Made by a program: the position numbers and the translations under genes. A stretch of DNA of 64,000 bases, from contig CAWDCV010000002.1 in the NCBI GenBank assembly GCA_963801015.1, forward strand, positions 1,060,118 through 1,124,117. Reading direction: 5' to 3'. Shown here piece by piece: positions 5,716-43,340 of this stretch (position 1 is its first letter; the number at the start of each line of letters is the position of its first letter). Source of the DNA: an uncultured Actinomycetota bacterium. GTDB lineage: Bacteria > Actinomycetota > Actinomycetes > CAWDCV01. The notes under the pieces were generated by a model that saw nothing but the letters and a program-made list of their open reading frames with translations, was not told the origin of the DNA and did not search any database.

Positions 5716-5983
5716 ATGTGCCGCAACATCACTGCCCTGCGCGGGCTCGAGCCGTCGGCGACGCCCGAGGAGATCAGCGCTGCTGCGCTGCAGTACGTCC
5801 GCAAGGTCGCGGGGATCTCCACCGTGACGCCGCAGCACCGCCGACGCCGTCGATCGCGCCGTGCGCCGCATCGCCGAGGCGACTGTCGACCTGATCGAGG
5901 AGCTGCCGGAGCGCCGCACTCCGCCGCCCACCGAGCCGCCCATGCGACGCCGCGCGGATCATCGCCACGCGGTGACTGCCTGA
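5716..5983 (+). pseudogene. DUF2277 family protein, frame disrupted (apparent -1/+1 indel near 5830-5845)
   Basis: MCRNITALRGLEPSATPEEISAAALQYVRKVAGIS is the conserved DUF2277 N-terminus. The conserved C-terminus (ADAVDRAVRRIAEATVDLIEELPERRTPPPTEPP...TA*) continues in a different frame ending TGA 5981-5983, whereas the original frame runs into an Arg-rich nonsense tail. Confidence 0.7.
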
Positions 5984-5990
5984 CGATCAC

Positions 5991-7705
5991 TCACCGCACG
6001 ACACGTCGATAGACGCGGGCCTCCCACGGCCGCAGCTCGATCGCGCCACTGCTGCCTGCCTCTTCGGGCGCCGAATAGTTGCCGAGGATGAGCTCTTCCC
6101 GCGCCCAAGATGCGGCGGCCGGGACCGGAGCCTCGACGGTGCCGGCGGAGAAGTTGCCGAGCACGAGCAGCGTGACGTCGTCGAGGGAGCGGGTGAATGC
6201 GTAGACGTTGTCGTCGTCCGGGAGCAGCATCTGGAAGTCGCCCTCCGCGACGACCGGCTCGCTGTGACGCAGCGCGATCACCCGCCGGTAGTGATGCAGC
6301 ACCGAGTCCGGGTCGCCCATGGCGTCGGAGACATTGATCTCGGGAAAGTTCGGCTGGACGGGGATCCATGGCGTTGCGGTGCTGAATCCCGCGTTCGGCG
6401 TGTCGTCCCAGTGCATCGGCGTGCGCGCGTTGTCGCGACTCATCGTTCGCAGACTTCTGAGTACGGTGTCGGGCGCTTCGCCAAGAACACCGACGGCATC
6501 GGCATAGTGGTTCAGCGACTCGACGTCCCGGAAGTCATCGATGCTGTCGAATGCGGCATTCGTCATGCCGATCTCTTCACCTTGATAGACATACGGCGTT
6601 CCGCGATGTAAGTGCAGCACCGTCGCCAGCAGCTTCGCTGACTCGACGCGATAGCGCCCGTCGTCGCCGTACCGCGAGACCGCCCGCGGTTGGTCGTGGT
6701 TGTTCCAGTACAGCGAGTTCCAACCAACGTCCGCGAGACCGACCTGCCAGCGCCCGAACGTCGCCTTGAGATCCCGCATGAGCAATGGGTGGACGTCCCA
6801 CTTGGTCGCACCTGATCGAGGCGAACGTGCTCGAAGTGGAAGACCATGTCGATCTCGTGTCGAGCGGGGTCGGTGAACAGCCGTGCCTCTTCGACGGTGA
6901 CGCCCGGCATCTCCCCGACGGTGAGGTACGCATTCGCCCGATCCGCGAAGACCTCCCGGTGCAGCTCCTGAACGAACTCGTGCAGTCGCGGACCGCCGAT
7001 GTAGTACGGCGAGCCGTCAGCGAAGCGACCGCCACCGATCATGCGACCGTCCGGAAGGCTGGGCTCCTTCGAGATGAAGTTGATGACGTCCATGCGGAAG
7101 CCGTCGACGCCGCGGTCGAGCCACCAGCGCATCATCGCGTAGACGGCTTCGCGTACCTGCGGGTTCTCCCAGTTGAGGTCGGGCTGCTTGCGCGTGAACA
7201 CGTGCAGGTAGTACTCGCCGCTCGACTCGTCGAATTCCCAGGCGGAGCCGGAGAAGACGGACGCCCAGTTCGTCGGCGCGGCTCCCGGTGCGCCGGGCTC
7301 CATGCCTTCGCGCGGTGGCCGCCACCAGTACCAATCGCGCTTCGCCGACGAGCGCGAGGACCGGCTCTCGACGAACCACGGATGCTCGTCGGAGGTGTGG
7401 TTGACGACGAGATCCATCACCAGCCGCATCCCTCGGTCGTGCACGCCGGCGAGAAGCTCGTCGAAGTCGCCCAAGGTCCCGAACGTCGGCTCGATGTCCT
7501 GGTAGTTGCTGATGTCGTAACCCATGTCGTCCTGCGGCGATGCGTACACCGGCGACAACCACAGAACGTCGACACCGAGCCAGGCGAGATAGTCGAGATG
7601 CGCGGTGATGCCCGCGAGGTCACCGATGCCGTCACCGTTCGCGTCGGCGAAGCTGCGCGGCCAGATCTGATAGACGACAGCTGAATGCCACCATGCTTGA
7701 GTCAT
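5991..7705 (-). pseudogene. GH13 alpha-glucosidase (oligo-1,6-glucosidase/trehalose-6-phosphate hydrolase-like), apparent frameshift near 6811
   Basis: The N-terminal 300 aa (MTQAWWHSAVVYQIWPRSFADANGDGIGDLAGI...GFRMDVINFISK...MVFHFEHV) lies in frame 6563..8122. The C-terminal 264 aa (KWDVHPLLMRDLKATFGRWQ...NHDQPRAVSRYGDD...) lies in frame 5991..6785. The junction sits at a cc run (6811-6812) where ccc is expected. Confidence 0.8.
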
Positions 7706-7715
7706 TCGACCTGCC

Positions 7716-9959: not shown

Positions 9960-10339
9960 TGCGGTCCGGTCCCCGAGGAGGCGTGGCTCGCCGATGCCGA
10001 GCCCAGGTCACGGGGACGCCGCAGCGCATCCGGCGCTGGGTCGACACTTCCTCGGCCGCTGAGGGCGATCCGGGATGAGCTTCGTCCGCTGGCCGACCTC
10101 GGCGCAGCGGTGGAAGCGTCCGGTCTCGGCCTGACCTGGTTCCGTCAGGTGAGCATCGACGACACGTGTCGGCGATCTGGTTCAAGCACCGCTCCGAGTT
10201 CGGCCAGCTGAACCACTGAGCGACACGGTCGAGAATCGGTCATCGATGGACCGATGAGTACTGCCGCTCGGCGTCGTTCCATCCTTCGACAGCGTTACAT
10301 CGACTCGCGGCGACCGTCGCGGCTGAAGGAGTGAGAAAG

Positions 10340-10756
10340 ATGGATTGGAAGCTCGAGCTGATCGTCGTGCCGGTGGCGGACGTCGACCGCGCCAAGGCCT
10401 TCTACACCGAGCAGATGGGATTCCGGCTCGACGTCGATCACGCAGCAGGAGACGCGTTCCGTGTCGTGCAGATGACACCGCCCGGCTCAGCCTGCTCGAT
10501 CACGATCGGCATCAACGTCGGTGCTGGCGAGCCGGGGACGACCAAGGGCCTGCACCTCGTCGTCGACGACATCCAGGCAGCGCACAAGCAGCTCGAGGCC
10601 GCCGGGGTAGAGAACAGCGGCGTGCAGCACTTCGAGAATGGCGCCATGCGACCGGGGCCGGATCCTGACGACCAGGACTACGGATCGTTCATCTTCCTCA
10701 GCGACCCGGACGGCAACACCTGGGCCGTCCAGCAGGTGAAACCCCGCGCGTCATGA
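10340..10756 (+). CDS. VOC family protein (glyoxalase/bleomycin-resistance fold)
   Basis: GAAGGAG RBS 8 nt upstream of ATG 10340; protein MDWKLELIVVPVADVDRAKAFYTEQMGFRLDVDH... is typical of the VOC family. Confidence 0.8.
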   Translation: MDWKLELIVVPVADVDRAKAFYTEQMGFRLDVDHAAGDAFRVVQMTPPGSACSITIGINVGAGEPGTTKGLHLVVDDIQAAHKQLEAAGVENSGVQHFENGAMRPGPDPDDQDYGSFIFLSDPDGNTWAVQQVKPRAS

Positions 10757-11721: not shown

Positions 11722-11727
11722 CTTGGG

Positions 11728-13052
11728 CTATCCATCCGGTGGCGGAATCGGTAATTCGGGGTCGTGAAACACCGAATTGATTCTCGGTCGACGAGCGGGA
11801 TCGACCCACATCGGTGGGTTGCACCACACCCGCCCGCCTCGGCGTTGCAGTGTCCATTCGCCGAAGCGGTGGTGGTGGTAGTCGCAACCCAGCGCGAGGT
11901 TGTCGATGTTGGTGGGCCCGCCCTTGACCCAGTCGTGCAGGTGCATCACTTCACACCGGGTCGCTGGGACGTCGCAGCCGGGGTAGACGCAGCCCTTGTC
12001 CATGATGGTGAGCACGTGCCGCTGGTGCGCGGACGCGAGCCGGTTGCCTGGCCGACCCACAGCGGTGCGCCGTCGGTGTCGAACACCGCCGGCACCAGCC
12101 TGGCGTTCGCCGCGAGGCGGAGCACGTCGCGGATCGGGAGCAGGCCGCCGTGCGCGGTCGAGACGTGCCCGGTCTTGCGTTCGAGGTCGTCGAGCTTCGC
12201 GGTGATGATCAGGGTGGTGGGCACCCCGGCCTGGGACGGCAGGTCACCGGAGCCGAGCATGAGTTTCGCGGCGTCGCGAACCGCGTCGTGCATCCGCTGC
12301 GACACGGTCCGCATGTCGCGTTCCTGCGCGGTGTGCCGCGGTGCGGCGAGCGGTTCGAGCGCCGCCTGAGCAGCGCGCCGGTCTCCGGGTCGAGGAGACC
12401 CTGCACCGGGTACATGCCGTGCCGATCCTGCCGGCCGATCGTGAAGGCCCGCTGCCGCCGCCGCTCGTCGTCCGTGGAACCGAGGGATCCGTCCGGGTCC
12501 AAGCACATCAGCATCCGCGACGCACGCGTGCTTCAACTGGTCCGGGTCCAGATCGCGCGCGTGCGCGACGAGGTCGTGTTCGGCCTTGTCCCGGGTCGGC
12601 TGATCCACGGTGTTCGGGATGCGGCGCATCGTCTGCCGGATCAGCCGCACCTGCTCGGCGCCGAGATCACCGTCCGCGACCGCAGCAGCGAGCGCCGGCA
12701 GTTTCGGCGGGAGCAGCTCACCCGAAGTCATCGACCGGCCAGGGACCAGATCATCGGCCAGCGCCAGCCGCGACCCCGCCTCCGCCGCGGAACAGTTCAG
12801 CAGCTGCCGCAGGAACGCCGCCGCCGTCCGGCAGCCGTGCTGCTCCGGCAGGCCCCGCGTCTTCACCTCGCTCAGAGCGCCGCCGCGCCGGGCGGGTGCC
12901 TGCCGATCCACCCGGTCCATACGGCGCACCCCGTCGAGCAGCTTCTCGTTGGTCACGACCGTCCAGTCGAACTCGCGTAACCCGCGCGCCCCCTCCTCGA
13001 ACATGCGCAAGTGAATCTCCAACTCACTGCTCAGCTCGAGATCGGCGGCCAT
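11728..13052 (-). pseudogene. DUF222 domain / HNH endonuclease protein (REP13E12-type repeat family), apparent frameshift near 12055-12075
   Basis: The DUF222 N-terminal region lies in frame 11946..13052. The HNH C-terminus (GRPGNRLASAHQRHVLTIMDKGCVYPGCDVPATRCEVMHLHDWVKGGPTNIDNLALGCDYHHH) lies in frame 11728..12060. The shift between the two is +1 at around 12060. Confidence 0.8.
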
Positions 13053-13827: not shown

Positions 13828-13920
13828 AGGCTTTCAGCGGAAGCTATAAGCGAGCCCGACCTCTGAACACGAGAGTCTGCCTGTCGACCAAGGTCACTGC
13901 ACCGTCGACTTTGTGCCGAT

Positions 13921-15164: not shown

Positions 15165-15452
15165 ACGAAGGAAGCCATCGCGCACGGATGGGTCGACAGT
15201 CAACCGAGGAAGCTCGACGACGTGGAGAACCTCGTCGAGCCAGCGGACTTGCCGACGCAGCTGGATGCGGATGCGGATGCGCGTCGCTACTGGGACGCGT
15301 TCCCACGCTCTACCAAGCGCGCGATCCTCGAGTGAACCGGTACGGCGAAGACGGATGCGACGCGCGACAAACGCATCGAGGAGACCGCTCGACTCGCAGC
15401 GAAGGACATCCGGGCCAACCAACCCCGTCAGCCCAAGCGCTCCGCACGGTAG
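15165..15452 (+). pseudogene. C-terminal fragment of YdeI/OmpD-associated family protein (remnant)
   Basis: The frame reads ...EAIAHGWVDSQPRKLDDVENLVEPADLPTQLDADADARRYWDAFPRSTKRAILEWTGTAKTDATRDKRIEETARLAAKDIRANQ*, which matches only the C-terminal ~95 aa of YdeI-family proteins. There is no N-terminal half and no start context; the upstream part overlaps the DUF418 3' end. Confidence 0.35.
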
Positions 15453-15499
15453 GCGAGCGCGCCATTCTGGCCGCGATGTCCATTCGGCGAGTCACGGCA

Positions 15500-16288: not shown

Positions 16289-16449
16289 CTAGAACGGGTC
16301 GAGGTAGGTGCAGGTCGGCCTGTCGGCGACCGGCGGGCGCGGCGCGGCGCTGTCCTGGGCGTACGCCGAGCTATCACACGCGACGAGGGTGAGGGCGCTG
16401 AGACGCCTGCTCCGGCGAACATGGCAACGCGCAGACGAACGGAACGCAT
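16289..16449 (-). CDS. small secreted lipoprotein (about 52 aa), apparent +1 indel in a C/G run near 16394
   Basis: ATG 16449: MRSVRLRVAMFAGAGVS in one frame, then LTLVACDSSAYAQDSAAPRPPVADRPTCTYLDPF* in the neighbouring frame. Joined they form a classic signal peptide plus lipobox (LVAC). Either frame alone is non-protein-like. Confidence 0.45.
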
Positions 16450-19946: not shown

Positions 19947-22939
19947 GTGAGCGGCAACCGGTCAGAGCGGCGGTCGTTGAGCGACCTGCTGGCTGAGCGG
20001 CACGGCAGCGAGCCAGCGGGTAGCGCCGAGGCTTTCCAGGCTCCTCCTCCGGACGAGGAGACCGCCGCTGAGGAGACGGCGCCAGGCAACCGTGCAACGC
20101 CCGTCGGCCGCCCCGGATCCATGGCCGCGCGGCTGGCCGCGACCCGGAAAGCCCAGCAGGAACGTCGCAGGCAGCGTCCGCCACGCGGCGAAACAGACAC
20201 AGCGGACGCGTCCACCGCGCCGACCGATGAGCCGGCGGCGCACGGTGTCAACGGGGTGACACAGGAGGCGCCCGCCGCTCCCGAATCGGCCACTCCCGAA
20301 TCAGCCAAATCAGCCGCTCCCGAATCAGCCGCTCCCGACGAGGAAGCGCCGGTACGCCCTCGACCCGGCTCGGCGGCGGCCCGACTGGCCGCCGCGCGGC
20401 GCGCCCGCCAAGCTCGCCGGGAGGCCGCTCGCGAGCAGCGCGAGGCGACCGCAACGCCGGTGGCGCCGGCTGCGCCGGCTGCGCCGCCGCCGAGCCAGCC
20501 AAACCCCCCAAGCCAGCCGAGCCAGCCAAATCCCCCAAGCCAGCCGAGCCAGCGGCGGAGGCATCGCCGAAGCCAGCTGCGTCGCCCGAGCGGGCTGCGC
20601 CACCCGAGCCTGGCCGCCGACAAGCCCGGAGCTCGACATCGCCGACGCCCGTCCCGCCCGAGCGGGCTGCGCCACCCGAGCCTGCCGCCGACAAGCCCGT
20701 GAGCTCGACATCGCCGACGCCCGTCCCGCCCAAGCCCGCTGCGGCGACACCGCCCGCTGCACCCAAGCCCACTGCACCCAAGCCCACTGCACCCAAGCCA
20801 GCGGCGCCCAAGCCCGCTGCGGCGAAGCCCGCCGCGCCGAAGCCGAAGCCACCGGACGCACCTCAGCCCGCCGATGCACCGCCGGCAGCGCGCCCGACCC
20901 CAGAACCCGCGCCGCCGAAGACTGCTGCGCCGAAACCGAAGCCGGCAGTGTCCGCAACGCCACAACCCGCGCCGGCACCGCCACCACCGGCAGTCACGCC
21001 GGAGCCCATCGCCGCCCGGACGGCACAACCACCGCCCGCGTCCGCTCCAGCTGGTCCCGCTGTTGACTTGCCGAACTTTGGCGTCGTCGCGACGGTCATC
21101 GCGTTGATCGCTGCAGCCATCCTGCCCCTCCTCGCTCTCGGCGCCGCGTCGAGCGCAACGATTGCCGAAGGTGGCTACGTCGTCCGCGCCTTCGCCGCTT
21201 CCGAGATCCCCGGCGCGCTCGCGTCGACGTCCGTGGCAGATCGCCTGCTCGGTGCCTATGCCAGCGCCACCGGCGCCTTCACCGGTGACGGCAGCCCGGT
21301 GCTCGCTGGCCGCGTCCCCATGCTCCTCGCGGCAGCGGTCGGTGTCGGACTCGTCTACCTGCTCGGCCGCCACCTGACCCACTCGCGCGTCACCGCGGTC
21401 GTAGCGGCGGTCCTGTTCGGGCTATCGCCGCTGTCGATCACGCTGCACCGCATGGTCGATCCGGCGAATCTCGCCATCCCGTGCATGCTCGCGGCGATCC
21501 TGCTCGCCGCGTCCGCGACGAAGCCCAGCGTCACGCGACGGGGACGTTTCCTCGTGGTCGGCCTTGCTGCCGTCCTCGCGCTGCTCGCGCTGCTCATTGC
21601 TCCCATGCTGCTCGTTGTCGTGCCCACGGTGAGCTGGTTCGCCTGGGAGGCGCTGCGACCGACGATCCGCGATCGCGTCGTCGATGCCGTCGCGCCCGCC
21701 GTGATGGCCGTCGCGTGGCTCGTGACCTACCTCTTGGTCCGTTCCGGCGTCGGATCGACTGGACTCGGCAGCGGCGCCGAGAGCATCTCGCTGGACGTCC
21801 TGATCGGGCCCGACCCGGTGTTCGTCGTGCTTTCGATCCTCACTGCGTCGGGTGCGCTGTTGCTCGGACGGCTGCGCGTCGTCTCGGCGACGCTGCTCGT
21901 GCTCGTGCTGCTCTGCTTCTTCCCTGGGTCAGCCTCGCGCGTCAGTGCCGCGATCGCGGCCGTCCCGTTCGCTGCCCTGGTCATCCCGAGCGCGGTCGAA
22001 GCCGCCTGGCTGCACTGGCGCGAGGTCACCTCCGAGGAGTCCGCGCGGCTGCGTCGACTCGGTCCAGCCATCGTCGTCGGCCTGCTCGTCGTTCTCGCGC
22101 TGCCGATCTGGCTGGTCCGCCTGGGTCCCGAGGTCGCCTCCCGATCCGACGGCGATCCGGCCCGCGCTGTCGCTGATTTCCTCGACAGCGAGGTCTCCGA
22201 CGACGAGGCCGTCCTCGTTGACGACGCGACCTGGGTCGTCCTCGCCCGCGCCAGCGACGACCTGGCCGCGCGGATGCCGTACGACGCCGTGCGCTCCGGT
22301 GGCGCATTCGTACGATCGGGTCTCGATCCGTCCCTCGCGGTGGCCGCCGAAGGCGTCCGTGACGAGCGGTTGCGCGATTTCCTCGACCGCTCGCGCCCGC
22401 TGGCCGCATTCGGCCCGCTGGTCATCCGCCAGGTGACCCAGTCGGCCACGCAGAACCGCCCGTCCAGCCAACCCACGCCGAGCGAGACACCGCTGCTGTC
22501 ACCCGAACAGGAGCGAGCAGATCCGCTGCCTGCCGAGGAGCTCGCCGAACGGCGTGCGGCCGGTGCCGACCTGCTCCGCAACAGCAAGCTCATCGCCGAG
22601 CCACCAGCGGTCGCTGCGCTCGAACAGGGTCAGGTCGATCCCCGGTTGCTGTCGGTGCTGGTCTCCGCGATCTTCAGCCAGACGATCCGGGTCGCCGACT
22701 TCCCGGCCGCTCGTGGCGAGGAGGGCACCGACGCCGCGCGGCGCACCGCGATCATCACCCAGATCGACGGAGCGCCGGTCGATGCGAACGGGGAGGCCAC
22801 CGAGAAGCTCGTGCGCTTCCTCCAGGCACAGCTGCCGACGTACCGCCCGGCTGACGTGTCCGTCTCGTTGACCGGTTCCAGCTTGACCATCCGCTATGAC
22901 GCCCCGAGCCCCGTAGGACTCCTCGCGAGGGGGACCTGA
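19947..22939 (+). CDS. large Pro/Ala-rich repeat protein with C-terminal polytopic membrane domain (GT-C/PMT_2-like glycosyltransferase fold suspected); apparent frameshift near 20481-20492
   Basis: Frame 0 (19947..) encodes the N-terminus with internal repeats (GSMAARLAATRKAQQERRRQ / GSAAARLAAARRARQARREA). From ~20490 the adjacent frame encodes natural PAxxPK repeats (AEPAKPPKPAEPAKSPKPAEP...PKPTAPKPTAPKPAAPKPAAAKPAAPKPKPP) and runs without a stop into the 746-aa ORF 20699..22939 (>10 TM helices plus a soluble C-terminal domain). Frame 0 itself becomes an Arg-rich nonsense tail. Confidence 0.6.
20460..20830 (+). repeat. in-frame coding tandem repeats (30-bp SQP/PKPAEP unit x2-3; ~75-bp unit x2 at ~20583-20735; 15-bp aagcccactgcaccc unit x3)
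   Basis: Direct repeats visible in sequence. The two ~75-bp copies differ by a +1 and a -1 indel that compensate each other (PEPGRRQARSSTSP versus PEPAADKPVSSTSP). Confidence 0.7.
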
Positions 22940-22968
22940 TGCTCACCAGAAAGAGAAGGGGAGGAATA

Positions 22969-23874
22969 GTGAAATCTCGTATGCGCGCCATGGCATCGGC
23001 AGGAGCCGCCGCCGTCGCGCTTCTCGCGGCCTCATGGGCAGGTGCTGCCCCGGCGGTCGCTCAAACGGACTCGGTCGTCCCGACGTCCACCGGCTGGGTG
23101 CGGCTTGCCCACCTGTCCCCGGACACGCCGAACGTCGACGTCTACCTCACCTCGTTCGACCGACCCGATTTCCGCGAGGTGTTTCCCGGCGTCGGCTACG
23201 GCGTCGTCTCCGACTACCAGCGACTCGAGCCGGGCCGCTACAACGTCGAGATGCGGCCGGCAGGTGCCGCCGAGAGCACGCCGCCGGTGATCTCCGCAGC
23301 CGCGGACGTCCAGGGCGGCCTCGCGTACACCGTGGCGGGTCTCGGCCAAAATGCGCAGCTGCAGCTCAAGGTGCTGTCGGACGACCTGTCGCTGCCGCCC
23401 TCGGGGCAGGCCAAGGTGCGAATCGTCAACGCCTCGCTCAACGCGCCGCTCGTCGACGTGTCGGTGCAGAACGGGCCGACCGTAGCGACGGGCGTGGCGT
23501 TCGCCAACTCGTCGCAGTACGGCTCCGTCCCGGCCGGTTCGTGGACGCTGTCGGTCACGCCCAAGGAGGGGGCGACGACACCCTCCACCGGCAACGTCGA
23601 CCTCGCCGCGGGCAGCGTGTACTCGGTGCTGCTCCTGGACGAGGCGGATGGAACCGTCGAGGTCGTCACCCACACCGACGCATCGGCGGCTGGAGCCGCA
23701 GCGGCTGGCGGCGTCGCCACCGGGCTCGGTGGTACGGCCGGAGGCAGCTCCTCGCTGCCGCTAACCGTGTTGGCGATCGGCGCCGGTGTGCTACTCGCCG
23801 GTGCGCTCGGGCTGCGCCGCATGCTCGTCCCGGCTCGTGGCCGCTACGTCGCGTCCCACCGGATGCCCGGCTGA
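22969..23874 (+). CDS. DUF4397 domain-containing secreted/surface protein with C-terminal membrane anchor
   Basis: AGGGGAGGAA RBS then GTG 22969. Signal peptide MRAMASAGAAAVALLAASWAGAAPAVA, then DUF4397 repeats (VRLAHLSPDTPNVDVYL..., KVRIVNASLNAPLVDVSV...). The C-terminus reads GGTAGGSSSLPLTVLAIGAGVLLAGALGLRRM... Confidence 0.75.
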   Translation: MKSRMRAMASAGAAAVALLAASWAGAAPAVAQTDSVVPTSTGWVRLAHLSPDTPNVDVYLTSFDRPDFREVFPGVGYGVVSDYQRLEPGRYNVEMRPAGAAESTPPVISAAADVQGGLAYTVAGLGQNAQLQLKVLSDDLSLPPSGQAKVRIVNASLNAPLVDVSVQNGPTVATGVAFANSSQYGSVPAGSWTLSVTPKEGATTPSTGNVDLAAGSVYSVLLLDEADGTVEVVTHTDASAAGAAAAGGVATGLGGTAGGSSSLPLTVLAIGAGVLLAGALGLRRMLVPARGRYVASHRMPG

Positions 23875-24461
23875 ATCGCTCCATCCAGCTGCTCGCCGCC
23901 GCGGTGCTCCTTGCCGCGGCGGCGGGCTGTGGGACGCGCTCCGACTCCGGGACCGCGTCCGCGCCTCGGCAGGAATCGCCGCCCCCAACGATCTCGTCGA
24001 CAATGATCCCGGTGCTGCGGTCAGCAGCGCCGGTCTCGCTGACGATCCCCAAGCTCGACCTGGCCGTCGACCTCGAGCGCCTAGGCCTCGACGATGCCGG
24101 GGCGCTCATTCCGCCGCAGGACTTCGCTCGACCCGGCTGGTACGTCGACAGCGCGGTCCCCGGTGACGTCGGCCCCGCTGTGATCGCCGGCCACGTCGAC
24201 TCGCGCAACGGGCCCGCCGTCTTCTACGACTTGCGCGAGCTAGCGCCAGGAGACGTCGTCGACGTCGGCCGTGAGGACGGCAGCACGGCCCGCTTCAGCG
24301 TCCTCGGCACCGAGCAGTACCCCAAGGACGAGTTCCCGACCCAGGCGGTCTACGGCCCCACGCCGGATGCGGAACTGCGCCTCATCACCTGCGGCGGCGT
24401 GTTCGACCGGGCGGCGCGCTCGTATCGCGACAACGTCGTCGTCTACGCGGTCGCCGCCTGA
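23871..24461 (+). CDS. class F sortase (transpeptidase); start codon unresolved
   Basis: Catalytic domain motifs: TIPKLDLAVDLERLG...GWYVDSAVPGDVGPAVIAGHVD...LRLITCGGVFD...NVVVYAV. The in-frame N-terminus LNRSIQLLAAAVLLAAAAGCG has no ATG/GTG; an ATG at 23863 (MPG) is one base out of frame, a possible homopolymer indel. Confidence 0.75.
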   Translation: MNRSIQLLAAAVLLAAAAGCGTRSDSGTASAPRQESPPPTISSTMIPVLRSAAPVSLTIPKLDLAVDLERLGLDDAGALIPPQDFARPGWYVDSAVPGDVGPAVIAGHVDSRNGPAVFYDLRELAPGDVVDVGREDGSTARFSVLGTEQYPKDEFPTQAVYGPTPDAELRLITCGGVFDRAARSYRDNVVVYAVAA

Positions 24462-27819: not shown

Positions 27820-27869
27820 CCCTCACCGGCGATGCTGACCGACACCGAACTCGGCGGTTGCCCACCGAG

Positions 27870-34316: not shown

Positions 34317-34742
34317 CTACTCCAGGAGCGAACGAATCGCGCTTACCTTGGCGCGCGCATCGGTGAGCCGCTCGTCGGTGAGCGACCAGGTCTCGAGCCA
34401 CTCGCTGTCGTCCTCGCCGACTCGATCGAGCGCCTCCGCCGCGAGCGTCGGCAGGTCATCGGACAGGTCGAAGTCGGTCGATGCCAGCCAGTCGACGACC
34501 GCGTCGTCGTCGATGCCGGCGTCGTCCGGGTCGGCTGCGACCGACGCAATCACGGCAACGATCGATGCCGCCGCGACACCGCGATTGGCGTCGATCAGAT
34601 CGAGGTAGCCCTCGTTCGCCGTCACATCGAGCAACGCGTCGCGAAGCGTTCTGGGGACGTCTGCGGGGTCGAGCGGTTCCAGAATGTGAAAGAAGTCCAT
34701 GGCGTCGTCATTGCCGAACGGTGCTGCGCTCCAGGTGGCCAC
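34317..34742 (-). CDS. DUF4259 domain-containing protein
   Basis: (M/V)ATWSAAPFGNDDAMDFFHILE... is the DUF4259 N-terminal signature; acidic protein. Confidence 0.7.
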   Translation of the reverse strand: MATWSAAPFGNDDAMDFFHILEPLDPADVPRTLRDALLDVTANEGYLDLIDANRGVAAASIVAVIASVAADPDDAGIDDDAVVDWLASTDFDLSDDLPTLAAEALDRVGEDDSEWLETWSLTDERLTDARAKVSAIRSLLE

Positions 34743-34796
34743 GGAGGAATTCTCCAGGAGAAGTTACGGGGGTCGGTCATCGGGTACGGCGCTCCC

Positions 34797-36272
34797 GTGC
34801 GGAGCCTGTCCTCGCTGCTGGCCAGTGTCGCCGACGAGCGGATCGTCGTGGTCGGCGACGCCGTCCTCGACGCCTGGCTTTCGGGCCCCGCACACCGGCT
34901 ATGCCGCGAGGCGCCGGTCCCGGTAGTGAGCGTCGACCAGCGCATCACCGCTCCGGGTGGCGCGGCGAACACCGCGGCCAATGCCTCAGCGCTCGGGGCG
35001 GACGTCAGGTTCGTGTCTTTCGTGGGGCAGGACGACGACGCGCTCGCCCTGCGGCACGCGCTCGCCGTGCACGGCGTCGCGGACTCCGCGCTCCTGGGCG
35101 TACCCGGCCGCCGCACCCAGGCGAAGCGGCGGATCCTGTCCAACGGTCAGGTGCTCGCGCGCTTCGACGAGGGCGATGCCGGCGAGCCGTCCGAGCAGGT
35201 CCAGGCCGACCTGGTCGATGCGCTCCACCTTGCGCTCGCGGCGCCCGACGGCGGAGTGGACGCGCGGGTCGTGCTCGCGGCCGACTACGGCGCGGGCACG
35301 CTGACCGCGCGCGTCCGTGAGCGGCTGACGGCACTGCGCGACGAGCACGATCTCCTGCTCGTGGTCGACGCCCACGACGTGCGCCCCTGGCGCGACGTAC
35401 GGCCGACAGCCGTCACCCCGAACTGGCCGGAGACCGCCGCCCTGCTCGGCATCTCGCCGAACGTGCCGGATCGAGCGGCCTACGTGGAGGCGCACGCCGA
35501 CGACCTGCTCGCCGCGAGTGGGGCCTCGCTTGTCGTGGTCACGTTGGACGAGGACGGCGCGGTGCTGCTCGAACGGGGCCGCCCGCCGCACCGCGCGTAC
35601 ACCGAACGCATCGACCGCCCGTCGACGACCGGTGCCGGCGACTCGTTCGCCGCGGCCTTCACGCTCGCGCTCGGCGCGGGCGCCGACAGCATTACAGCGG
35701 TGGAGATCGGCGTCGCAGCAGCCTCCGTCGTCGTCCGCGAGCGCGGCACAGCCGTATGCGACATCAGCGAGCTCCAGCGTTCGCTCGGGCTCGTCGAGCG
35801 CTCGTTGCTCAGCGAGGCGGAGATGGCGTCGGCGATTGCTATGCACCGGCAGGCCGGGCGGCGCATCGTCTTCACCAACGGCTGCTTCGACGTGCTGCAT
35901 CGCGGCCACGTGACGTATCTGGAGCAGGCCAAGCGCCTCGGCGACGTCCTCGTCCTCGCGCTCAACAGCGACGACAGCGTGCGCCGGCTCAAGGGCGCTG
36001 ATCGGCCGGTCAACAGCGCCGAGGATCGCGCCGCGGTGCTCGCGGCCCTGTCGTGCGTCGACCATCTCGCGGTGTTCGACGAGGACAGTCCACGCCGCCT
36101 GCTCGAAGTCGTCCGCCCCGACCTCTACGTCAAGGGCGGCGACTACACGCCGCAGATGCTGCCGGAGGCGCCACTCGTCGAGCAGCTCGGCGGCAGCGTG
36201 CGGATCCTGCCCTACGTCGAGGATCGGTCGACGACGAGCCTGCTCGAGCGGATCCGCGCCAGCGCGCCCTGA
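34797..36272 (+). CDS. hldE: bifunctional D-glycero-beta-D-manno-heptose-7-phosphate kinase / heptose-1-phosphate adenylyltransferase (copy 1, unlinked to the heptose cluster)
   Basis: N-terminal pfkB-type sugar kinase domain (VVGDAVLDAW...TGAGDSFAAA) and C-terminal cytidylyltransferase-like domain (FTNGCFDVLHRGHVTYLEQA, RILPY); start taken at GTG 34797 because the upstream part of the track ORF overlaps the DUF4259 gene. Confidence 0.8.
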   Translation: MRSLSSLLASVADERIVVVGDAVLDAWLSGPAHRLCREAPVPVVSVDQRITAPGGAANTAANASALGADVRFVSFVGQDDDALALRHALAVHGVADSALLGVPGRRTQAKRRILSNGQVLARFDEGDAGEPSEQVQADLVDALHLALAAPDGGVDARVVLAADYGAGTLTARVRERLTALRDEHDLLLVVDAHDVRPWRDVRPTAVTPNWPETAALLGISPNVPDRAAYVEAHADDLLAASGASLVVVTLDEDGAVLLERGRPPHRAYTERIDRPSTTGAGDSFAAAFTLALGAGADSITAVEIGVAAASVVVRERGTAVCDISELQRSLGLVERSLLSEAEMASAIAMHRQAGRRIVFTNGCFDVLHRGHVTYLEQAKRLGDVLVLALNSDDSVRRLKGADRPVNSAEDRAAVLAALSCVDHLAVFDEDSPRRLLEVVRPDLYVKGGDYTPQMLPEAPLVEQLGGSVRILPYVEDRSTTSLLERIRASAP

Positions 36273-36288
36273 TGGTGACGCGCCTCCT

Positions 36289-36359: not shown

Positions 36360-36360
36360 G

Positions 36361-38043: not shown

Positions 38044-38062
38044 CTGTCAGAGTGTGCCGGAA

Positions 38063-38338: not shown

Positions 38339-38773
38339 TTATGCCGGCGACGCATCGGCCTGTGGCTGGGCGATGTTGACCAGCCAGTCGATGCCGTACT
38401 TGTCGGTGAACATGCCGAACTTGTCACCCCACGGCGACACGTCGAGGGGCACGGTGATGCGACCGCCTGCGGAGAGCTTCTCGTAGTAGCCGGTGAGCAG
38501 GTCGTCGTCATCTCCGCTGAGTGACATCGCCATCTGCGTCCCGATGCGGTACTCCATGCTCGCGGGCGTGTCGGCACCCATGAAGACGATGCCGTTGTCG
38601 GCGGTCAGCTGAGAATGCATGATCTTGTCGTCTTCGCTGGGGTCCTCGGACGCGTCGAACTCCTTGAACGTATTTATGTCGAGCTGGCCGCCGAAGACGC
38701 TCTGATAGAACTGCATCGCCTCGCGGGCGTTGCCCTTGAAGTTGATGTACGGGTTGAGCTTGCTCGCCATCAC
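38339..38773 (-). CDS. VOC family protein (PhnB-like glyoxalase fold)
   Basis: MMASKLNPYINFKGNAREAMQFYQSVFGG...ITVPLDVSPWGDKFGMFTDKYGIDWLVNI is typical of PhnB/VOC. Confidence 0.75.
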   Translation of the reverse strand: MMASKLNPYINFKGNAREAMQFYQSVFGGQLDINTFKEFDASEDPSEDDKIMHSQLTADNGIVFMGADTPASMEYRIGTQMAMSLSGDDDDLLTGYYEKLSAGGRITVPLDVSPWGDKFGMFTDKYGIDWLVNIAQPQADASPA

Positions 38774-38803
38774 TCCTCCTGTGCTTGCTAAGTGGGTGTT
38801 GGG

Positions 38804-39313
38804 TCAGCTCGGATCGAGCTGCAGGCGACAGTACGCCAGTTGAAGTGCGTCACTTCCGGCGAGGGCTGAGAACACCGCGGCGACAACGCGGGTCTGGCGC
38901 GGGGCCACCACGAGCCCAGCAACGAATCCGGTGGCGATCCACTGGCCTAGGCAGAACGGGCACGTGAGCAGCTCGCCGATCACGTGCTGGTGCCCGTCGC
39001 CGCGCGCCTCCTCGGACAGCTCCGCGGGCCCGCCGACGCCGCGGTAGCGCGTGAACGGCGCCCGCAACGGGCTCGTGATGTTGGCCCGGCTGATGAGGCG
39101 ACTGAGCTTGTGCGTCGCCACGGTGACGAGGGCCAGGTCCCAGGGGCGGATGGTCTCTGGAGCGCGTACGCCGGCCTGCCGAGCGGCGGCGGCCGCCGCG
39201 GCAACCAGACCGAGGTACGTGGCCATCGCGGCGGTGTACGACGCCAGCGGCCGGTCCTCGTCCGGAGAGTAGTTGTGCGTCACGTCCTGGAGCCGGCCAG
39301 CGAGCTGTGTCAT
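38804..39313 (-). CDS. DUF1360 domain-containing membrane protein
   Basis: VATHKLSRLISRANITSPLRAPFTRY and two TM helices; DUF1360 signature. Confidence 0.65.
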   Translation of the reverse strand: MTQLAGRLQDVTHNYSPDEDRPLASYTAAMATYLGLVAAAAAAARQAGVRAPETIRPWDLALVTVATHKLSRLISRANITSPLRAPFTRYRGVGGPAELSEEARGDGHQHVIGELLTCPFCLGQWIATGFVAGLVVAPRQTRVVAAVFSALAGSDALQLAYCRLQLDPS

Positions 39314-39414
39314 GAGCCGACTTCCGTCGAAGGCACTGTCATGAGCGCACCTGTACCCGTGGCCGGAGGATGTCGAACGACCGGCGGGGCAGCTTCCCTG
39401 ACACGGATGAGGCC

Positions 39415-39439
39415 ACTGGTTCGAATCCAGTATCGCCCA
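39415..39439 (+). other. tRNA 3'-end remnant (T-arm plus acceptor 3' strand: ACTGGTTCGAATCCAGTATCGCCCA) without a matching 5' half; possible integration-site scar
   Basis: Canonical G-TTCGAAT-C T-loop with a 5-bp stem followed by a 7-nt acceptor strand and discriminator A. No complementary GGGCGAT 5' strand within 120 nt upstream; it lies in a 243-nt intergenic gap. Confidence 0.55.
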
Positions 39440-39556
39440 CTGATAGTCGGCCTTGTCAGGCCGCGTTGCCGGACTACCGGTCCTCCTGGATCCGTAAAGG
39501 TGCAGCCGATGGCTCGCTTGGTGCCCTCCGGTAGAGAACCAGCTTTGATTATCAGG

Positions 39557-39982
39557 TCAGGTCGTCCCGGTGTACTCGTGATCGGTGACGTGCTCGAGCC
39601 AGGTCACGACCCGGCCGTGGTCGTCGGCTTCCTGCATGGCGACGTGGGCCATGAACCGGTCGGGTGTGGCGCCGTGCCAGTGCTCCTCGTCGGGTTCGAT
39701 GTAGACGACGTCTCCGGGTCGGATCTCGACGATCTCGCCGCCTCGGTAGGAGACGAGCCCGATCCCGTCGGTGACGTACAGCGTCTGACCCTTGGGATGG
39801 GAGTGCCAGGCGGTGCGGGCGCCTGGGGTGAACCGGACGTGGGCGCAGCCGATGGCGGACTGGTCGTCGGGGTTCCGGATGGTGTCGATGTAGACGTCTC
39901 CGGTGAACCAGTCAGCCGGCCCTTCTCCGGTCTGTCCTCCGCTGTGCGTGATCTTCACGTGCGTCTCCTGGTGGGCTGGCAA
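39557..39982 (-). CDS. cupin domain-containing protein
   Basis: Cupin motifs (AWHSHPKGQTLYVTDG...PGDVVYIEPDEEHWHGA). Confidence 0.75.
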   Translation of the reverse strand: MPAHQETHVKITHSGGQTGEGPADWFTGDVYIDTIRNPDDQSAIGCAHVRFTPGARTAWHSHPKGQTLYVTDGIGLVSYRGGEIVEIRPGDVVYIEPDEEHWHGATPDRFMAHVAMQEADDHGRVVTWLEHVTDHEYTGTT

Positions 39983-40001
39983 AGCGACGGGGCCAGAGGT
40001 C

Positions 40002-40375
40002 TTACTGGGCGGTGTAGCCGCCGTCGACGGGGAGGGCGACGCCGATGACGAAGCCGGCCCCCGGACTGCTCAGCCACAGCACCGAGGCCGCGATCTCCTC
40101 AGACGTGCCGAGCCGGTTGATGGGCTGGTTCGCCTTGGCGACCTCAAGGTCAAGTTCGCCTTTGTCGATCATGTCAGTGACCATCGGGGTGGCGATGGTG
40201 CCGGGACAGATAGCGTTGATCAGGATTCCGCGGGGGGCGTACTCGAGGGCCGCGCTGCGGGTGAGGCCGATGACGCCGTGCGGGCGGCGGCCAGACCCAT
40301 GCCGGAGCTGGCGCCGGTCACCAGCGCGACCTGGCCGGAGAAGTCATACGTCGGGTTCATCATCGAGCCTCTCAG
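40002..40375 (-). pseudogene. SDR family oxidoreductase remnant with internal deletion (~120 codons missing, frame broken)
   Basis: N-terminus MMNPTYDFSGQVALVTGASSGMGLAAAR (Rossmann TGxxxGxG) is joined directly, in a different frame, to the C-terminal ...HGVIGLTRSAALEYAPRGILINAICPGTIATPMVTDMIDKG...GRLGTSEEIAASVLWLSSPGAGFVIGVALPVDGGYTAQ*. The catalytic middle region is absent. Confidence 0.75.
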
Positions 40376-41403
40376 CTGGGTGCGGGTGAGGGTTGGAGGA
40401 GGACCTTGATGGCCTGACGCTGGTCCATGGCGGTGTAGGCGTCGGCGGCCTGGTCCAGCGGCAGGGTGAGGTCGAAGACCCGGCCGGGGTTGATCGTGCG
40501 GTTCCAGATCCGGTCGATCAGGTCGGGTAGGAACCGGCGGATTGGGGCGGGGCCGCCGTGGACGTGGACGTGGGTCATGAAGATGTCGTCGCCGGCGATG
40601 GCGACGTCATGGAGGACGCCGACGAAGCCGAGGTGCCCGCCGGGGCGGGTGGCGCCGATGGCCTGCATCATCGACTCCTGCGTTCCGACGGCCTCGACGA
40701 CCGAGTGTGCGCCGAGTCCGTCGGTGAGCTCCTTGACCTTGGCGATCCCGGCTTCGCCGCGTTCCTCGACGATGTCGGTGGCGCCGAACTCCCGCGCGAG
40801 GGCCTGCCGGTCGGCGTGCCGGGACATGGCGATGATGCGCTCGGCGCCGAGCTCCTTGGCGGCCAGGACGGCGAGCAGCCCGACGGCCCCGTCACCGACC
40901 ACGGCGACGGTCTTGCCCGGTCCGGCCTCGGCCGCCACGGCCCCGAACCAGCCGGTGCCCAGCACATCGGAGGCGGCCAGCAGGCTGGGAATCAGGTCCG
41001 CATCCGGCTGGCCCGGGGTGGCGACGAGCGTGCCGTCGGCCAACGGCACCCGCATCAGCTGCGCCTGCGACGGACCCGGGAAGTCGCGGTGGACGCAGTT
41101 GGTCTGATAGCCGGCCTGGCAGATCTCGCAGGTGTTGTCGGAGGCGAAGAACGACCCGACCACGAAGTCGCCGACCTTGACCTGCTCGACCTGGTCGCCG
41201 ACCTGCTCGACGACACCGACGTACTCATGCCCCATCGGTTTCGGCTCGTTGACGGCGTCGGCGCCGCGGTAGGGCCACAGGTCCGATCCGCAGACACACG
41301 CCGCGGCGAGCCGGATGATCGCATCCGTCGGCTGCTGGATCGTCGGCTCGGGCAGGTCCTCGACCCGGACATCACCGGGGGCATGCATCACAACACCACG
41401 CAT
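40372..41403 (-). CDS. zinc-dependent alcohol dehydrogenase family protein (MDR superfamily; formaldehyde/threonine dehydrogenase-like)
   Basis: GHEYVGVV zinc site, structural-zinc Cys cluster (CEICQAGYQTNC), VVGDGAVG NAD-binding motif. Confidence 0.8.
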   Translation of the reverse strand: MRGVVMHAPGDVRVEDLPEPTIQQPTDAIIRLAAACVCGSDLWPYRGADAVNEPKPMGHEYVGVVEQVGDQVEQVKVGDFVVGSFFASDNTCEICQAGYQTNCVHRDFPGPSQAQLMRVPLADGTLVATPGQPDADLIPSLLAASDVLGTGWFGAVAAEAGPGKTVAVVGDGAVGLLAVLAAKELGAERIIAMSRHADRQALAREFGATDIVEERGEAGIAKVKELTDGLGAHSVVEAVGTQESMMQAIGATRPGGHLGFVGVLHDVAIAGDDIFMTHVHVHGGPAPIRRFLPDLIDRIWNRTINPGRVFDLTLPLDQAADAYTAMDQRQAIKVLLQPSPAPS

Positions 41404-41475
41404 CAGCGGGCCAACTCCTTGAAAGATCGGATTTGTGCGGGAACTGACCCCCAGTCAACCCCCGCCGACGACGAT

Positions 41476-41517
41476 GTGGGATGCCCTGTCGTGGGGTGTA
41501 CCACCAGGGCATCCCAC
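41476..41517. promoter_or_regulatory. 13-bp perfect palindrome arms (gtgggatgccctg N16 cagggcatcccac) in the divergent promoter region between the ADH gene and the MmyB-like regulator; candidate operator
   Basis: Seen directly; 33 nt upstream of the regulator start codon. Confidence 0.4.
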
Positions 41518-41549
41518 GTTCACGGCCCGGCGTCGTAGCGTCGTATGTC

Positions 41550-42431
41550 GTGGACAACCGTGACGAGGTCCGCGAGTTCCTCATCTCGCGGCGAGCCAAG
41601 ATCACCCCGGCTGAAGCCGGCCTGCCGACCCACGGCGCTCGGCGGGTACCCGGGCTGCGCCGGGCCGAGGTTGCGGCGCTGGCCGGGGTCAGCGTCGAGT
41701 ATTACGCCAAGCTCGAACGCGGCACGATCGCCGGTGCCTCCGCGTCCGTGCTCGACGCGATCGCCCGCGCCCTCCGGCTCGACGACGCTGAACGCGCCCA
41801 CCTGTTCCATCTCGCCCACGCCGCCGACGGCACCATCGCCAGCATGCGGCCCCGCCGAACCCCGAAACGCTGGCAACCCCGGCCGAGCCTGCAATGGGTG
41901 CTCGATGACTTCACCGCCCCGGCGATCGTCCGCAACGGCCGGATGGACCTGCTCGCCGCCAACCACCTCGGCCGAGCCATGCACGCCACCGTCTACGAGG
42001 CGACGGGCGACCCGGTGCCGAACTTCGTCCGGTTCACCTTCCTGCACCTCGACGACGCCGACGACTTCTACTCCGACTGGGACCTCGCCGCCGACACCAG
42101 CGTCGCCATCCTGCACACCGAAGCCGGCCGCGACCCGCACGACAAAGATCTGCACGACCTCGTCGGCGAGCTGTCCACCCGCAGCGACGACTTCCGGCGC
42201 CGCTGGAGCAGCCGCAACGTCCGCAGCCACGGCGCCGGCACCAAACAGTTCCACCACCGCGACGTCGGCGACCTCGAGCTCGCCTACGAGAGCCTGGACA
42301 TGATCGCCGATCCCGGACTCACCCTCACCCTCTACGCCGCCGAACCAGGCTCGCCCACCGCCAGCGCCCTCGCCCTGCTGGCTTCCTGGTCCAGCCCCAC
42401 CGTCACACCGTCACCGACCGCCACCTTGTGA
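41550..42431 (+). CDS. MmyB-like helix-turn-helix transcriptional regulator
   Basis: VDNRDEVREFLISRRAKITPAEAGLP...RRVPGLRRAEVAALAGVSVEYYAKLERG (XRE HTH) plus the MmyB-like ligand-binding C-terminal domain (AIVRNGRMDLLAANHLGRA...). Confidence 0.8.
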   Translation: MDNRDEVREFLISRRAKITPAEAGLPTHGARRVPGLRRAEVAALAGVSVEYYAKLERGTIAGASASVLDAIARALRLDDAERAHLFHLAHAADGTIASMRPRRTPKRWQPRPSLQWVLDDFTAPAIVRNGRMDLLAANHLGRAMHATVYEATGDPVPNFVRFTFLHLDDADDFYSDWDLAADTSVAILHTEAGRDPHDKDLHDLVGELSTRSDDFRRRWSSRNVRSHGAGTKQFHHRDVGDLELAYESLDMIADPGLTLTLYAAEPGSPTASALALLASWSSPTVTPSPTATL

Positions 42432-42569
42432 GATCCGCGCCGCGGGCTGGGTGTACCAGCGGTACGTGCCAGGCCAGGGTGTTCCTCACCACATGGGACG
42501 CTCCTGGCGTCGACGACGTGTGCTTCAGCACCCAGGCGAGCGCGATGGCCGCCATGGAGGGCTGTGTAC

Positions 42570-43340
42570 CTCAGGCTTGCGAGGTGGGCATGGCCCACAG
42601 CTCGGCCACCGACGAGCGGCGGGGTCGGGTGACCATGTAGGTGATGCCATCGGCGATATCCTCGGGCTGCAGCGGTTCGGGATGTTCTCGGCGTCGGAGG
42701 CGGCGAGGTTGTCACGGATCTGCTGGTTGTTGTGGGAGACAAGCTCGGTAGCCACGGCGCCGGGCTCGAGGACGCCGACGCGTACGTGCTTCTTCGTGAC
42801 CTCTTGACGGAGGGCCTCGGTGAAGCCGTTTACGCCGAACTTCGTCATGTTGTAGACGCCGAAGTTCGCCCAGGCCTGGCGGCCGGCGATCGAGGAGATG
42901 TTCACGATGTCGGCGACTCCGCGCGGCCCGTCCTGTGCTGCGGTCAGCAGGTGCGGGAGGGCGGCGTGGGTGACGTAGAGCAGGCCTTTCTGGTTGATCG
43001 CGATCATCCGTTCCCATTCCTCGATGTCGGCGCTGGCTACAGGGCCCAGCAGCATTAGTCCGGCGTTGTTGATGAGGATGTCGAGCCGGCCGAAACGGTC
43101 CACGACGGTTTGTACGGCCTGCTCGGCCTGGGCCCGGTCGGTGATGTCCGCCTCGACGGCCAACACCGTCGCGCCGGTCGCCTCGATCTCGGACACGAGG
43201 GTGTCCAGCCGGTCTTTGCGGCGAGCGAGGACGGCGACGCTCGCGCCGTGCTCGGCGAGCCGGCGAGCGGTCGCCTCCCCGATGCCGCTGCTGGCCCCGG
43301 TCACGATCGCGACCGTCCCGGTCAGCGTGGTGATGTTCAT
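42570..43340 (-). pseudogene. SDR family oxidoreductase with apparent frameshift near 42679 (C-terminal ~35 aa in the adjacent frame)
   Basis: MNITTLTGTVAIVTGASSGIGEA..., YxxxK active site (YNMTKFG); the expected C-terminus EPLQPEDIADGITYMVTRPRRSSVAELWAMPTSQA* is read in the -1 frame after a ccc/ggg run where one more base is expected. Confidence 0.75.

Follow-up and report, generated by a model that had tools for sequence, protein, structure and literature searches.

Recurrent single-base frameshifts in a metagenome contig of a soil actinobacterium are probably consensus errors of long-read assembly

The window, the whole stretch of 64,000 nucleotides analyzed here, comes from an Acidothermales-like soil actinobacterium, and its proteins appear in the NCBI/ENA record of a MAG contig of 1,848,131 bp (1.85 Mb). 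Between 5.7 and 42.7 kb, six genes are broken by small indels, at least eight of which have to be reversed to obtain family-typical proteins. The affected genes are as follows.

5716..5982, plus strand: DUF2277 gene, one extra base within 5833-5839
5991..7705, minus strand: GH13 oligo-1,6-glucosidase (alpha-glucosidase) gene, one base missing at 6811-6812
11728..13052, minus strand: DUF222/HNH endonuclease gene, frame changes at ~12520 (+1), ~12369 (-1), and ~12051 (-1)
16289..16449, minus strand: 53-aa lipoprotein gene with lipobox LVAC, one base missing at 16403 (GG to G)
19947..22939, plus strand: Pro/Ala-rich membrane protein gene, N-terminal part out of register with the PA-rich and TM part
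42571..43340, minus strand: classical SDR gene (YdfG-like), G4 run short of one base

The window was compared with five metagenome contigs of 93-99% identity from ENA assemblies with Flye-style names (e.g., contig_7801). For DUF2277, GH13, and DUF222/HNH, the comparison included three relatives each, for the SDR two, and for the lipoprotein one (L081); a search of the GTDB species-representative genomes with the GH36 protein found nothing closer than 71% identity. The five relatives keep the affected genes intact at the window's shift sites, and the pinned shifts were absent from every relative comparable at the given site, each indel being private to the window.

In the DUF2277 gene, the Pfam PF10041 match is divided between two frames (profile positions 1-39 and 42-73), and the insertion is private to the window relative to L081, L082, and L083. 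The restored protein of 88 aa differs by 2 to 5 residues from the relatives' 88-aa genes. The GH13 lesion reads CCC to CC on the plus strand, i.e., GGG minus one G on the coding strand, and splits PF00128 at profile positions 276/287, with matches 1-276 and 287-446 that are complete only when the two frames are joined. It was found in none of the three relatives compared, and the restored 571-aa protein is 97% identical to the 571-aa relative P0001 over 100% of the query. The substitution counts in both genes were too small for judging codon-position constraint. PF00106 (adh_short) matches the SDR, whose last 35 aa at the C terminus are read in a different frame; the site shows GGG at 42679-42681 in the window versus GGGG in L087 and L091. 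The restored SDR of 256 aa aligns end to end with homologues of 255-256 aa, and the motif at the junction, IPEPL, does not vary. The independent contig L091 (1390 bp, from run ERR12916211) is identical to the window at 1387 of 1390 positions (99.8%), and the differences are two substitutions and the missing G of the SDR, the only indel.

For these three genes, the first-pass annotation had placed the indels at ~5830-5845, at cc 6811, and at ggg 42679, and all three placements held. Its expectation that automated annotation truncates such genes was borne out by the public calls of the contig, in which GH13 is reduced to a stub of 191 aa (P0130) and the SDR, at 271 aa, ends in a nonsense tail (P0423). 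The restored ORFs contain no internal stops, in agreement with its claim that secondary stops are absent. In the other three genes, the damage was proposed correctly and its position or extent was revised. The lipoprotein gene is frameshifted, but at 16403 and not at the ggg of 16394, as the alignment to L081 indicates; the restored protein of 53 aa shows 4 residue differences from the 53-aa gene of L081. In the DUF222/HNH gene, a single shift had been expected at ~12060; three were found, at ~12051, ~12369, and ~12520. For the Pro/Ala-rich gene, the parts are in different frames as described, but the supposed indel at ~20485 corresponds to a net offset of +2 nt that can be assigned only to ~20470-20700.

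By three-frame translation, the DUF222 motif runs from frame 2 to frame 0 and back to frame 2, followed by HNH in frame 1; the PF02720 (DUF222) match covers 5-289, and the HNH part sits in another frame. None of the three relatives compared shares these indels. Window-private substitutions in the restored frame, counted by codon position across all three shifts, gave 12:7:35. This ratio suggests purifying selection on the window's own branch, with a coding constraint that persists across the shifts, and an old neutral pseudogene was rejected on this bias.

In the Pro/Ala-rich gene, the N-terminal part follows the frame of 19947 and the PA-rich and TM part that of 20699, and the third-position substitution pattern changes frame between ~20400 and 20700, within a repetitive tract (~20470-20700) where no single base is assignable and GC3 frame plots are unreliable. 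The gene is one continuous ORF in L086, and not so in the window, L084, and L085. The net offset between the window and L086 is 137 nt (3n+2). Reading the two ORFs (19947-20702 and 20699-22939) as coupled genes with a GTGA overlap was rejected on the single ORF of L086 and on the nonsense-like character of the ~60 last residues of ORF 19947-20702. The 851-aa ORF of L085 was rejected as an intact copy, its N-terminus being out-of-frame Arg-rich text. The N-terminal part had only two homologues in an exhaustive profile search, and since one of these is riddled with frame changes, the search is silent on the gene architecture.

These two genes, one hypervariable (DUF222/HNH) and the other with a repetitive tract (Pro/Ala), are the likeliest places for real lesions if the damage is of mixed origin, with mostly consensus errors and real lesions or length variation at one or two loci. 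Such a mixture is unlikely, though several observations are in its favor. The four assemblies compared all have a broken DUF222/HNH gene, at differing places, and three of the four have a broken Pro/Ala gene; real 3n length variation occurs in the Pro/Ala tract, where the window carries a 72-nt tandem duplication; and HNH/DUF222 genes of actinobacteria are often multi-copy and decaying. Against it stand the purifying selection indicated for the restored DUF222/HNH frame, the single Pro/Ala ORF of L086, and the fact that long-read consensus fails precisely at repeats and paralogues.

Two further genes had been suspected of affected starts, and neither suspicion was upheld.

24003..24461, plus strand: sortase gene, not affected, same 152-aa gene called in L084 and L085
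49812..50393, plus strand: gmhB-like HAD phosphatase gene, not affected, HAD-family Pfam matches from residues 24-25

No window-private indel was present between 20.7 and 27.8 kb, the sortase region, in the comparison with the relatives, and no window-private indel of 1-2 nt in 45.7-57.3 kb. In the 193-aa gmhB-like product, the Hydrolase_6 match begins at its profile position 1. The differing lengths of DUF4259 (127 versus 141 aa) and hldE (528 versus 491 aa) and the apparent truncation of the SDR at 55.7 kb were attributed to the start-codon choice of a crude gene caller and not to frameshifts. The other window genes checked had full-length domain matches or lengths equal to those of the relatives' genes.

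The relatives are themselves damaged. Each breaks other genes by its own private 1-nt indels, including GH36, DUF2252, ROK, sigma-70, bioA, amine oxidase, CMAS, hemerythrin, and DUF6328, all intact in the window, and four 1-nt insertions in a stretch of 20 nt produce an SDR-SDR fusion. In the contig behind L083 and L085, 71 private 1-2-nt indels were coding and 9 intergenic, which equals its coding fraction (0.86-0.95), so these indels are unfiltered by selection and random with respect to coding. Over ~13,600 codons of three or four relatives, more than 100 private coding indels were counted versus one in-frame stop made by substitution; over ~13,650 codons compared in the window, the counts were at least eight indels versus no such stop. 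The window's own private 1-2-nt indels were about equally coding and intergenic, and this even split, a point against consensus error, implies that some of them are real variants.

On the sequence comparisons, most or all of the frameshifts are probably indel errors made at the consensus stage of a long-read metagenome assembly (a probability of roughly 75%), and the organism's own mutations are probably not their source. The preference of the first-pass annotation for sequencing or consensus error over old pseudogenes is thus supported by the shifts private to the window and by sister assemblies with private shifts of their own. A contig of 1.85 Mb from soil implies long reads, and the platform would probably be Nanopore, with Flye as the assembler and light polishing. 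At consensus calling, a base would have been lost in about six cases and gained in about two. Errors may cluster at low read depth or where co-occurring strains or paralogues diverge, and such error-prone spots would be the DUF222/HNH gene, which is hypervariable, the repeats of the Pro/Ala tract, and the accessory SDR island. Gene callers would then truncate or split the shifted genes. The reads would presumably not support the indels.

Consensus indels of Nanopore data are a documented source of frameshifted gene calls, bins below ~40x coverage need polishing, and the fragmentation of gene calls in long-read (meta)genomes has been assessed with the IDEEL full-length-protein test (PMC9262707). 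The window resembles that pattern in single-base shifts that are private to one assembly and split conserved genes, in sister assemblies hit at other random places, in the near absence of nonsense mutations, and in the truncated calls P0130 and P0423. It differs in that classic long homopolymers were not seen (runs of 1-4 nt) and in that the shifts are clustered and not uniform, the platform and coverage being presumed here.

The sequence context fits consensus error less well. Siting in short homopolymers, as the first-pass annotation had it, was found for GH13 (CCC to CC) and the SDR (GGGG to GGG), but the other pinned sites lie in shorter runs. The six disrupted genes stand, the homopolymer attribution is right only in part, and DUF222/HNH carries three shifts, not one. 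Within 2 nt of each of the seven pinned sites, the longest run measured 2, 2, 2, 1, 1, 1, and 3 (background mean, 2.07), and in the intact state only two of the seven lay in a run of at least three. Homopolymers, the classic context of Nanopore errors, thus appear not to be enriched, which counts against consensus error. So does the clustering: at least six of the eight shifts fall within 5.8-20.7 kb and none in 45.7-57.3 kb, and three shifts inside 470 bp of one gene are not what a uniform error rate would give. The motif CCTG/CAGG occurs within 5 nt of three of the seven sites (post hoc P about 0.02), and if the shifts were real, the indels might stem from a sequence-specific hot spot of this kind.

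The clustering also bears on a very unlikely origin of the six genes as genuine, very recent, strain-specific pseudogenes, made by real 1-nt indels after the split from the closest sampled relatives. It would fit them, as would the gene types, which are non-essential (a sugar hydrolase, an HNH element, an accessory SDR, and small proteins of unknown function). Each affected gene could plausibly be dispensed with, as is expected of real pseudogenes, and this too counts against consensus error. Real gene loss nearby is indicated by genuine deletion remnants, of which the first-pass annotation had listed several; it was partly right, with an SDR C-terminal stub (40002-40184) and a SulP fragment (~45247-45671) seen, both within the strain-variable island. 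Weighing against pseudogenes, six of ~62 genes are broken by small indels alone with no nonsense mutation, and the SDR is intact in DNA that differs by 2 substitutions in 1390 bp. Given the third-position bias of DUF222/HNH, all three of its shifts would necessarily be very recent. The sister assemblies carry the same type of damage, denser and random with respect to coding, which cannot be biology and shows that such data generate such indels. Of the signs of relaxed constraint, an even codon-position spread was not seen in DUF222/HNH and secondary stops were not seen in the restored ORFs, and the lesion spectrum comprised the two deletion remnants of the variable island and no nonsense mutation in the window codons compared.

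Frameshift pseudogenes are known from decaying bacterial genomes, e.g., Mycobacterium leprae, and from recent host-restricted lineages. The window shares with the M. leprae type the cutting of conserved genes by 1-nt indels and the co-occurrence of deletion remnants. Unlike that type, it lacks nonsense mutations and secondary stops, retains codon-position bias on its own branch, has intact near-identical relatives, and shows full-length genes elsewhere among those checked. Were the shifts real, a reading of correspondingly low probability, they would amount to a very recent and unusually rapid indel-driven loss of accessory functions in a free-living Acidothermales-like soil actinobacterium, and the lost functions would be the alpha-glucosidase, DUF2277, the HNH element, the lipoprotein, the Pro/Ala-rich envelope protein, and the SDR.

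That the shifts are functional, through programmed ribosomal frameshifting, transcriptional slippage, or phase variation at short runs, is barely credible. Two sites do lie in G/C runs of 3-4, and a one-base change in a G/C run that disables a gene (GH13, SDR) resembles slipped-strand phase variation. Slippage of this type usually needs runs far longer than the 1-4 nt seen here; moreover, the tracts of 3-4 nt lie in ordinary metabolic genes, most sites are outside runs, and the switch sites are not conserved. In the relatives, each of these proteins is read from a single unbroken frame, no slippery heptamer was seen in the junction sequences inspected by eye, and the six affected genes are unrelated.

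With consensus error as the preferred reading, the finding is mainly a matter of data quality and would hold no new biology unless reads confirm the indels. The sister assemblies are far worse, with about two private indels per kb in one contig, so claims of gene decay for such MAGs need read-level checks. About one gene in ten in this public MAG stretch would be mis-annotated as split or truncated, and such mis-annotation would skew the counting of pseudogenes, presence/absence calls in pangenomes, and metabolic inference, an example being an alpha-glucosidase seemingly lost from a GH36-GH13 sugar operon.

The first-pass annotation had reported six genes disrupted by single-base frameshifts. 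All six were broken in the sequence as given, by at least eight frame-changing indels, and its remark that secondary stops are absent was borne out, since all ORFs restored by undoing the indels were free of internal stops.

5716-5982, + strand: DUF2277 gene, one extra base within 5833-5839 against three relatives
7705-5991, - strand: GH13 gene, one G of GGG missing (CC at 6811-6812 on the + strand)
13052-11728, - strand: DUF222/HNH gene, private indels at ~12520 (+1), ~12369 (-1) and ~12051 (-1)
16449-16289, - strand: lipoprotein gene, one base missing at 16403 (GAGGAC to GAGAC)
19947-22939, + strand: Pro/Ala-rich protein gene, N- and C-terminal parts out of register
43340-42571, - strand: SDR gene, GGG at 42679-42681, one G short

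The Pfam match of the DUF2277 gene to PF10041 was broken up, with profile positions 1-39 and 42-73 lying in successive frames, and deletion of the extra base gave an 88-aa product with 2-5 residue differences from the 88-aa genes of the relatives. In GH13, the PF00128 match was split at profile positions 276/287, and the coding strand read CAG GTG CGA in the window versus CAG GGT GCG in the relatives; along its whole length, the restored 571-aa protein shared 97% identity with the 571-aa homologue P0001. Substitutions private to the window branch were too few in these two genes for a codon-position judgement. The restored lipoprotein (53 aa, signal peptide and lipobox LVAC) differed at 4 residues from the 53-aa gene of locus L081, the sole comparison for this shift, and its indel lay at 16403, not in the GGG at 16394 where it had been placed.

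The proposed location of the indels at C/G runs held in the intact state for GH13 (run of 3) and SDR (run of 4) but not for most sites. Longest runs around the seven sites located to a base or few bases were 2, 2, 2, 1, 1, 1, and 3, indistinguishable from the window background mean of 2.07, so attribution to C/G runs was no better than chance at most of them. The motif CCTG/CAGG occurred within 5 nt of three of these seven coding indels (6812, 12051, and 12369; background 8.6%, post hoc P ~0.02) and also at 27869; it could be a methylation motif behind systematic miscalls, or chance. Recoding or phase variation had negligible probability, given orthologues in one frame and tracts of 1-4 nt. 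The sortase and gmhB starts, also suspected earlier, proved unaffected by comparison with relatives, Pfam, and the small-indel survey. Frameshift readings of DUF4259, hldE, and the SDR at 55.7 kb were rejected as start-codon choices of a crude gene caller.

With a probability of roughly three in four, most or all of the frameshifts would be consensus errors of a long-read assembly, the platform being inferred from the large contig, the contig_N naming, and the behavior of the sister assemblies. The earlier preference for errors over old pseudogenes was supported by private, coding-blind indels in sister assemblies, an intact SDR in locus L091, and the codon bias of DUF222/HNH. Frameshifts in gene calls are documented to arise from Nanopore consensus indels, and short-read polishing is needed for metagenomic bins with less than ~40-fold coverage (PMC9262707). 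A large terrestrial long-read MAG project, which puts its assemblies and MAGs in ENA, used Flye --meta and one Medaka round, stated to lower indel errors (PMC12313526); its MAG contigs share the contig_N naming of the relatives, a resemblance and no proof of origin.

The window has 69% G+C across its 64 kb and densely packed actinobacterial genes. Residue-for-residue copies of its proteins (P0130, a 191-aa GH13 stub; P0423, a 271-aa SDR with a nonsense tail; P0255, P0388, P0389, P0404, and P0421) all lie on one 1,848,131-bp NCBI/ENA contig. The nearest named relatives were MAGs labelled Acidothermales or Actinomycetes bacterium, and the GH36 protein had no match above 71% identity among GTDB species representatives. 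Cluster members of the window proteins led to five contigs of ENA metagenome assemblies, all named contig_N, 219 kb to 1.59 Mb long, and syntenic with the window at 93-99% identity.

Contigs and loci of the relatives:
ERZ25039541 contig_17525: L081, L090
ERZ25039547 contig_7801: L082, L084, L087
ERZ25039456 contig_5861: L083, L085
ERZ25039576 contig_66356: L086, L089
ERZ25039494 contig_22890: L088

Every pinned frameshift comparable with several relatives was private to the window, and the relatives, each with its own set, break genes that are intact there. L083/L085 split or truncate GH36, DUF2252, ROK, sigma-70, acetyltransferase, bioA, amine oxidase (in three pieces), CMAS, hemerythrin, and LytR; in L086, DUF6328 is split and ChaB truncated; in L087, an MmyB-like regulator is truncated. 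At L087 11600-11660 (window 43333-43352), where the stop of one SDR gene overlaps the start of another, a 20-nt stretch holds four single-base insertions that fuse the two into the 538-aa ORF P0424; errors of this sister assembly plainly cluster here. Private 1-2-nt indels numbered 80 in the 219-kb contig (~38 kb compared), 17 in the 1.59-Mb contig, and 15 in the window. These counts loosely follow contig size, which might roughly stand in for depth; intermediate-size contigs, compared over one region each, gave no clean ordering. In the worst contig, 71 private indels were coding and 9 intergenic, which equals its coding fraction, so no selective filtering had acted on them. The same comparisons held one substitution-made in-frame stop in the relatives (~13,600 codons, three or four relatives) and none in the window codons compared, whereas private coding indels exceeded 100. 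Such a spectrum, nearly all indels, changing from one assembly to the next and indifferent to coding sequence, is characteristic of consensus error and not of gene decay.

At the SDR junction the window reads ATC CCG AAC, where ATC CCC GAA is expected. The restored 256-aa protein aligned end to end with 255-256-aa homologues, with the junction IPEPL invariant. L091, a 1390-bp contig of an independent assembly (run ERR12916211, Logan collection), was identical to the window at 1387/1390 positions; two substitutions and a single indel, the G missing from the window SDR, made up the difference, and its 256-aa product differed from the restored SDR by one residue.

The single shift near 12060 proposed for DUF222/HNH was right as to disruption and wrong as to number: in a three-frame view, the diagnostic DUF222 stretch LDPDGSLGSTDDERRRQRAFTIGRQDRHGMYPVQGLLDPETGALL differs in frame from the flanking sequence on both sides, and the HNH domain lies in the third frame. 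Three shifts within 470 bp, in a gene broken in four of four assemblies, had prompted the reading as an old neutral pseudogene, which was rejected on codon-position bias. Of 54 substitutions confined to the window branch, counted in the restored frame through all three shifts, codon positions 1:2:3 took 12:7:35, and third positions were likewise favored in each segment in pairwise comparisons; the gene was thus under coding constraint for most of the window branch. Slow decay fits this less well than a cluster of local errors at a hypervariable and possibly multi-copy gene. The locus (11728-13052) is far more divergent than its neighbors (window-private substitutions 4.2% versus ~0.8% in GH36), and its 5' part is strongly different in L082 and L083, which suggests a possible allelic replacement or paralogue exchange.

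In the Pro/Ala-rich gene, substitutions among four genomes fell on third positions of the 19947 frame to ~20400 and of the 20699 frame from ~20700. The N-terminal part, Pro/Ala linker, and membrane domain form a single unbroken ORF in L086 but not in the window, L084, or L085. Against L086 the window has a net offset of 3n+2, which falls within a repetitive tract whose length truly varies; the reported shift stands, at a site compatible with ~20480 but not pinnable to the base. A mixed origin, with some real lesion at the DUF222/HNH or Pro/Ala loci beside the consensus errors, is unlikely, though less so than pseudogenization throughout. At ~20556-20700 the window alone has a 72-nt (24-codon) tandem duplication; its first copy (PEPGRRQARSSTS) is set apart from the second (PEPAADKPVSSTS) by a +1 and a -1 indel with a spacing of 18 nt, perhaps another two consensus errors that offset each other. 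Downstream, the DUF4397 protein (22939-24461 region) has a C-terminal hydrophobic tail of LPLT type SLPLTVLAIGAGVLLAGALGLRR and is encoded immediately ahead of a small sortase, a likely substrate-sortase pair by prediction.

That all six are genuine recent pseudogenes is improbable. At least six of the eight shifts are clustered at 5.8-20.7 kb and not spread over the window, every broken gene is of dispensable type, and about half of the window-private small indels are intergenic (17542, 13857, 10169, 34794, 32042, and 27869), so that some of them reflect true variation, as strains that differ by 2-3% should show. Two real deletion remnants, both noted earlier, also lie in a variable island:

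40002-40184, - strand: SDR remnant, 60-aa C-terminal fragment, adh_short_C2 positions 184-236 only
~45247-45671, + strand: SulP remnant, C-terminal fragment, aligning at 97% with a portion of the complete 578-aa SulP of L088

Against this stands the indel-dominated, coding-blind damage in the sister assemblies. The island (39314-45678), flanked by the DUF1360 gene on one side and a luciferase-like monooxygenase on the other, differs in gene content in every relative:

Window: cupin, SDR stub, Zn-ADH, two MmyB-like regulators, two SDRs, SulP fragment
L087: two SDRs and one regulator only
L088: SfLAP, alkyl-sulfatase, sigma factor, full 578-aa SulP
L089 and L090: YCII and sigma factor

Two insertions are window-specific against all three relatives, one intergenic (4993-5059, 67 nt) and one in sequence variable among relatives (15435-15487, 53 nt). 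From 45.7 to 57.3 kb, comparison with relatives found no window-private 1-2-nt indel at all. Two hldE-like bifunctional kinase/adenylyltransferase genes, a gmhA-like SIS, a gmhB-like HAD, two GT9 heptosyltransferase-like and two GT4 genes (34686-36272 and 49812-57303) form a predicted heptose-nucleotide glycosylation cluster in an actinobacterium, conserved and without window-private small indels in the assemblies compared.

For most or all of the frameshifts as probable consensus errors, the significance lies in annotation quality, and the biological interest is low unless read-level data confirm the indels.
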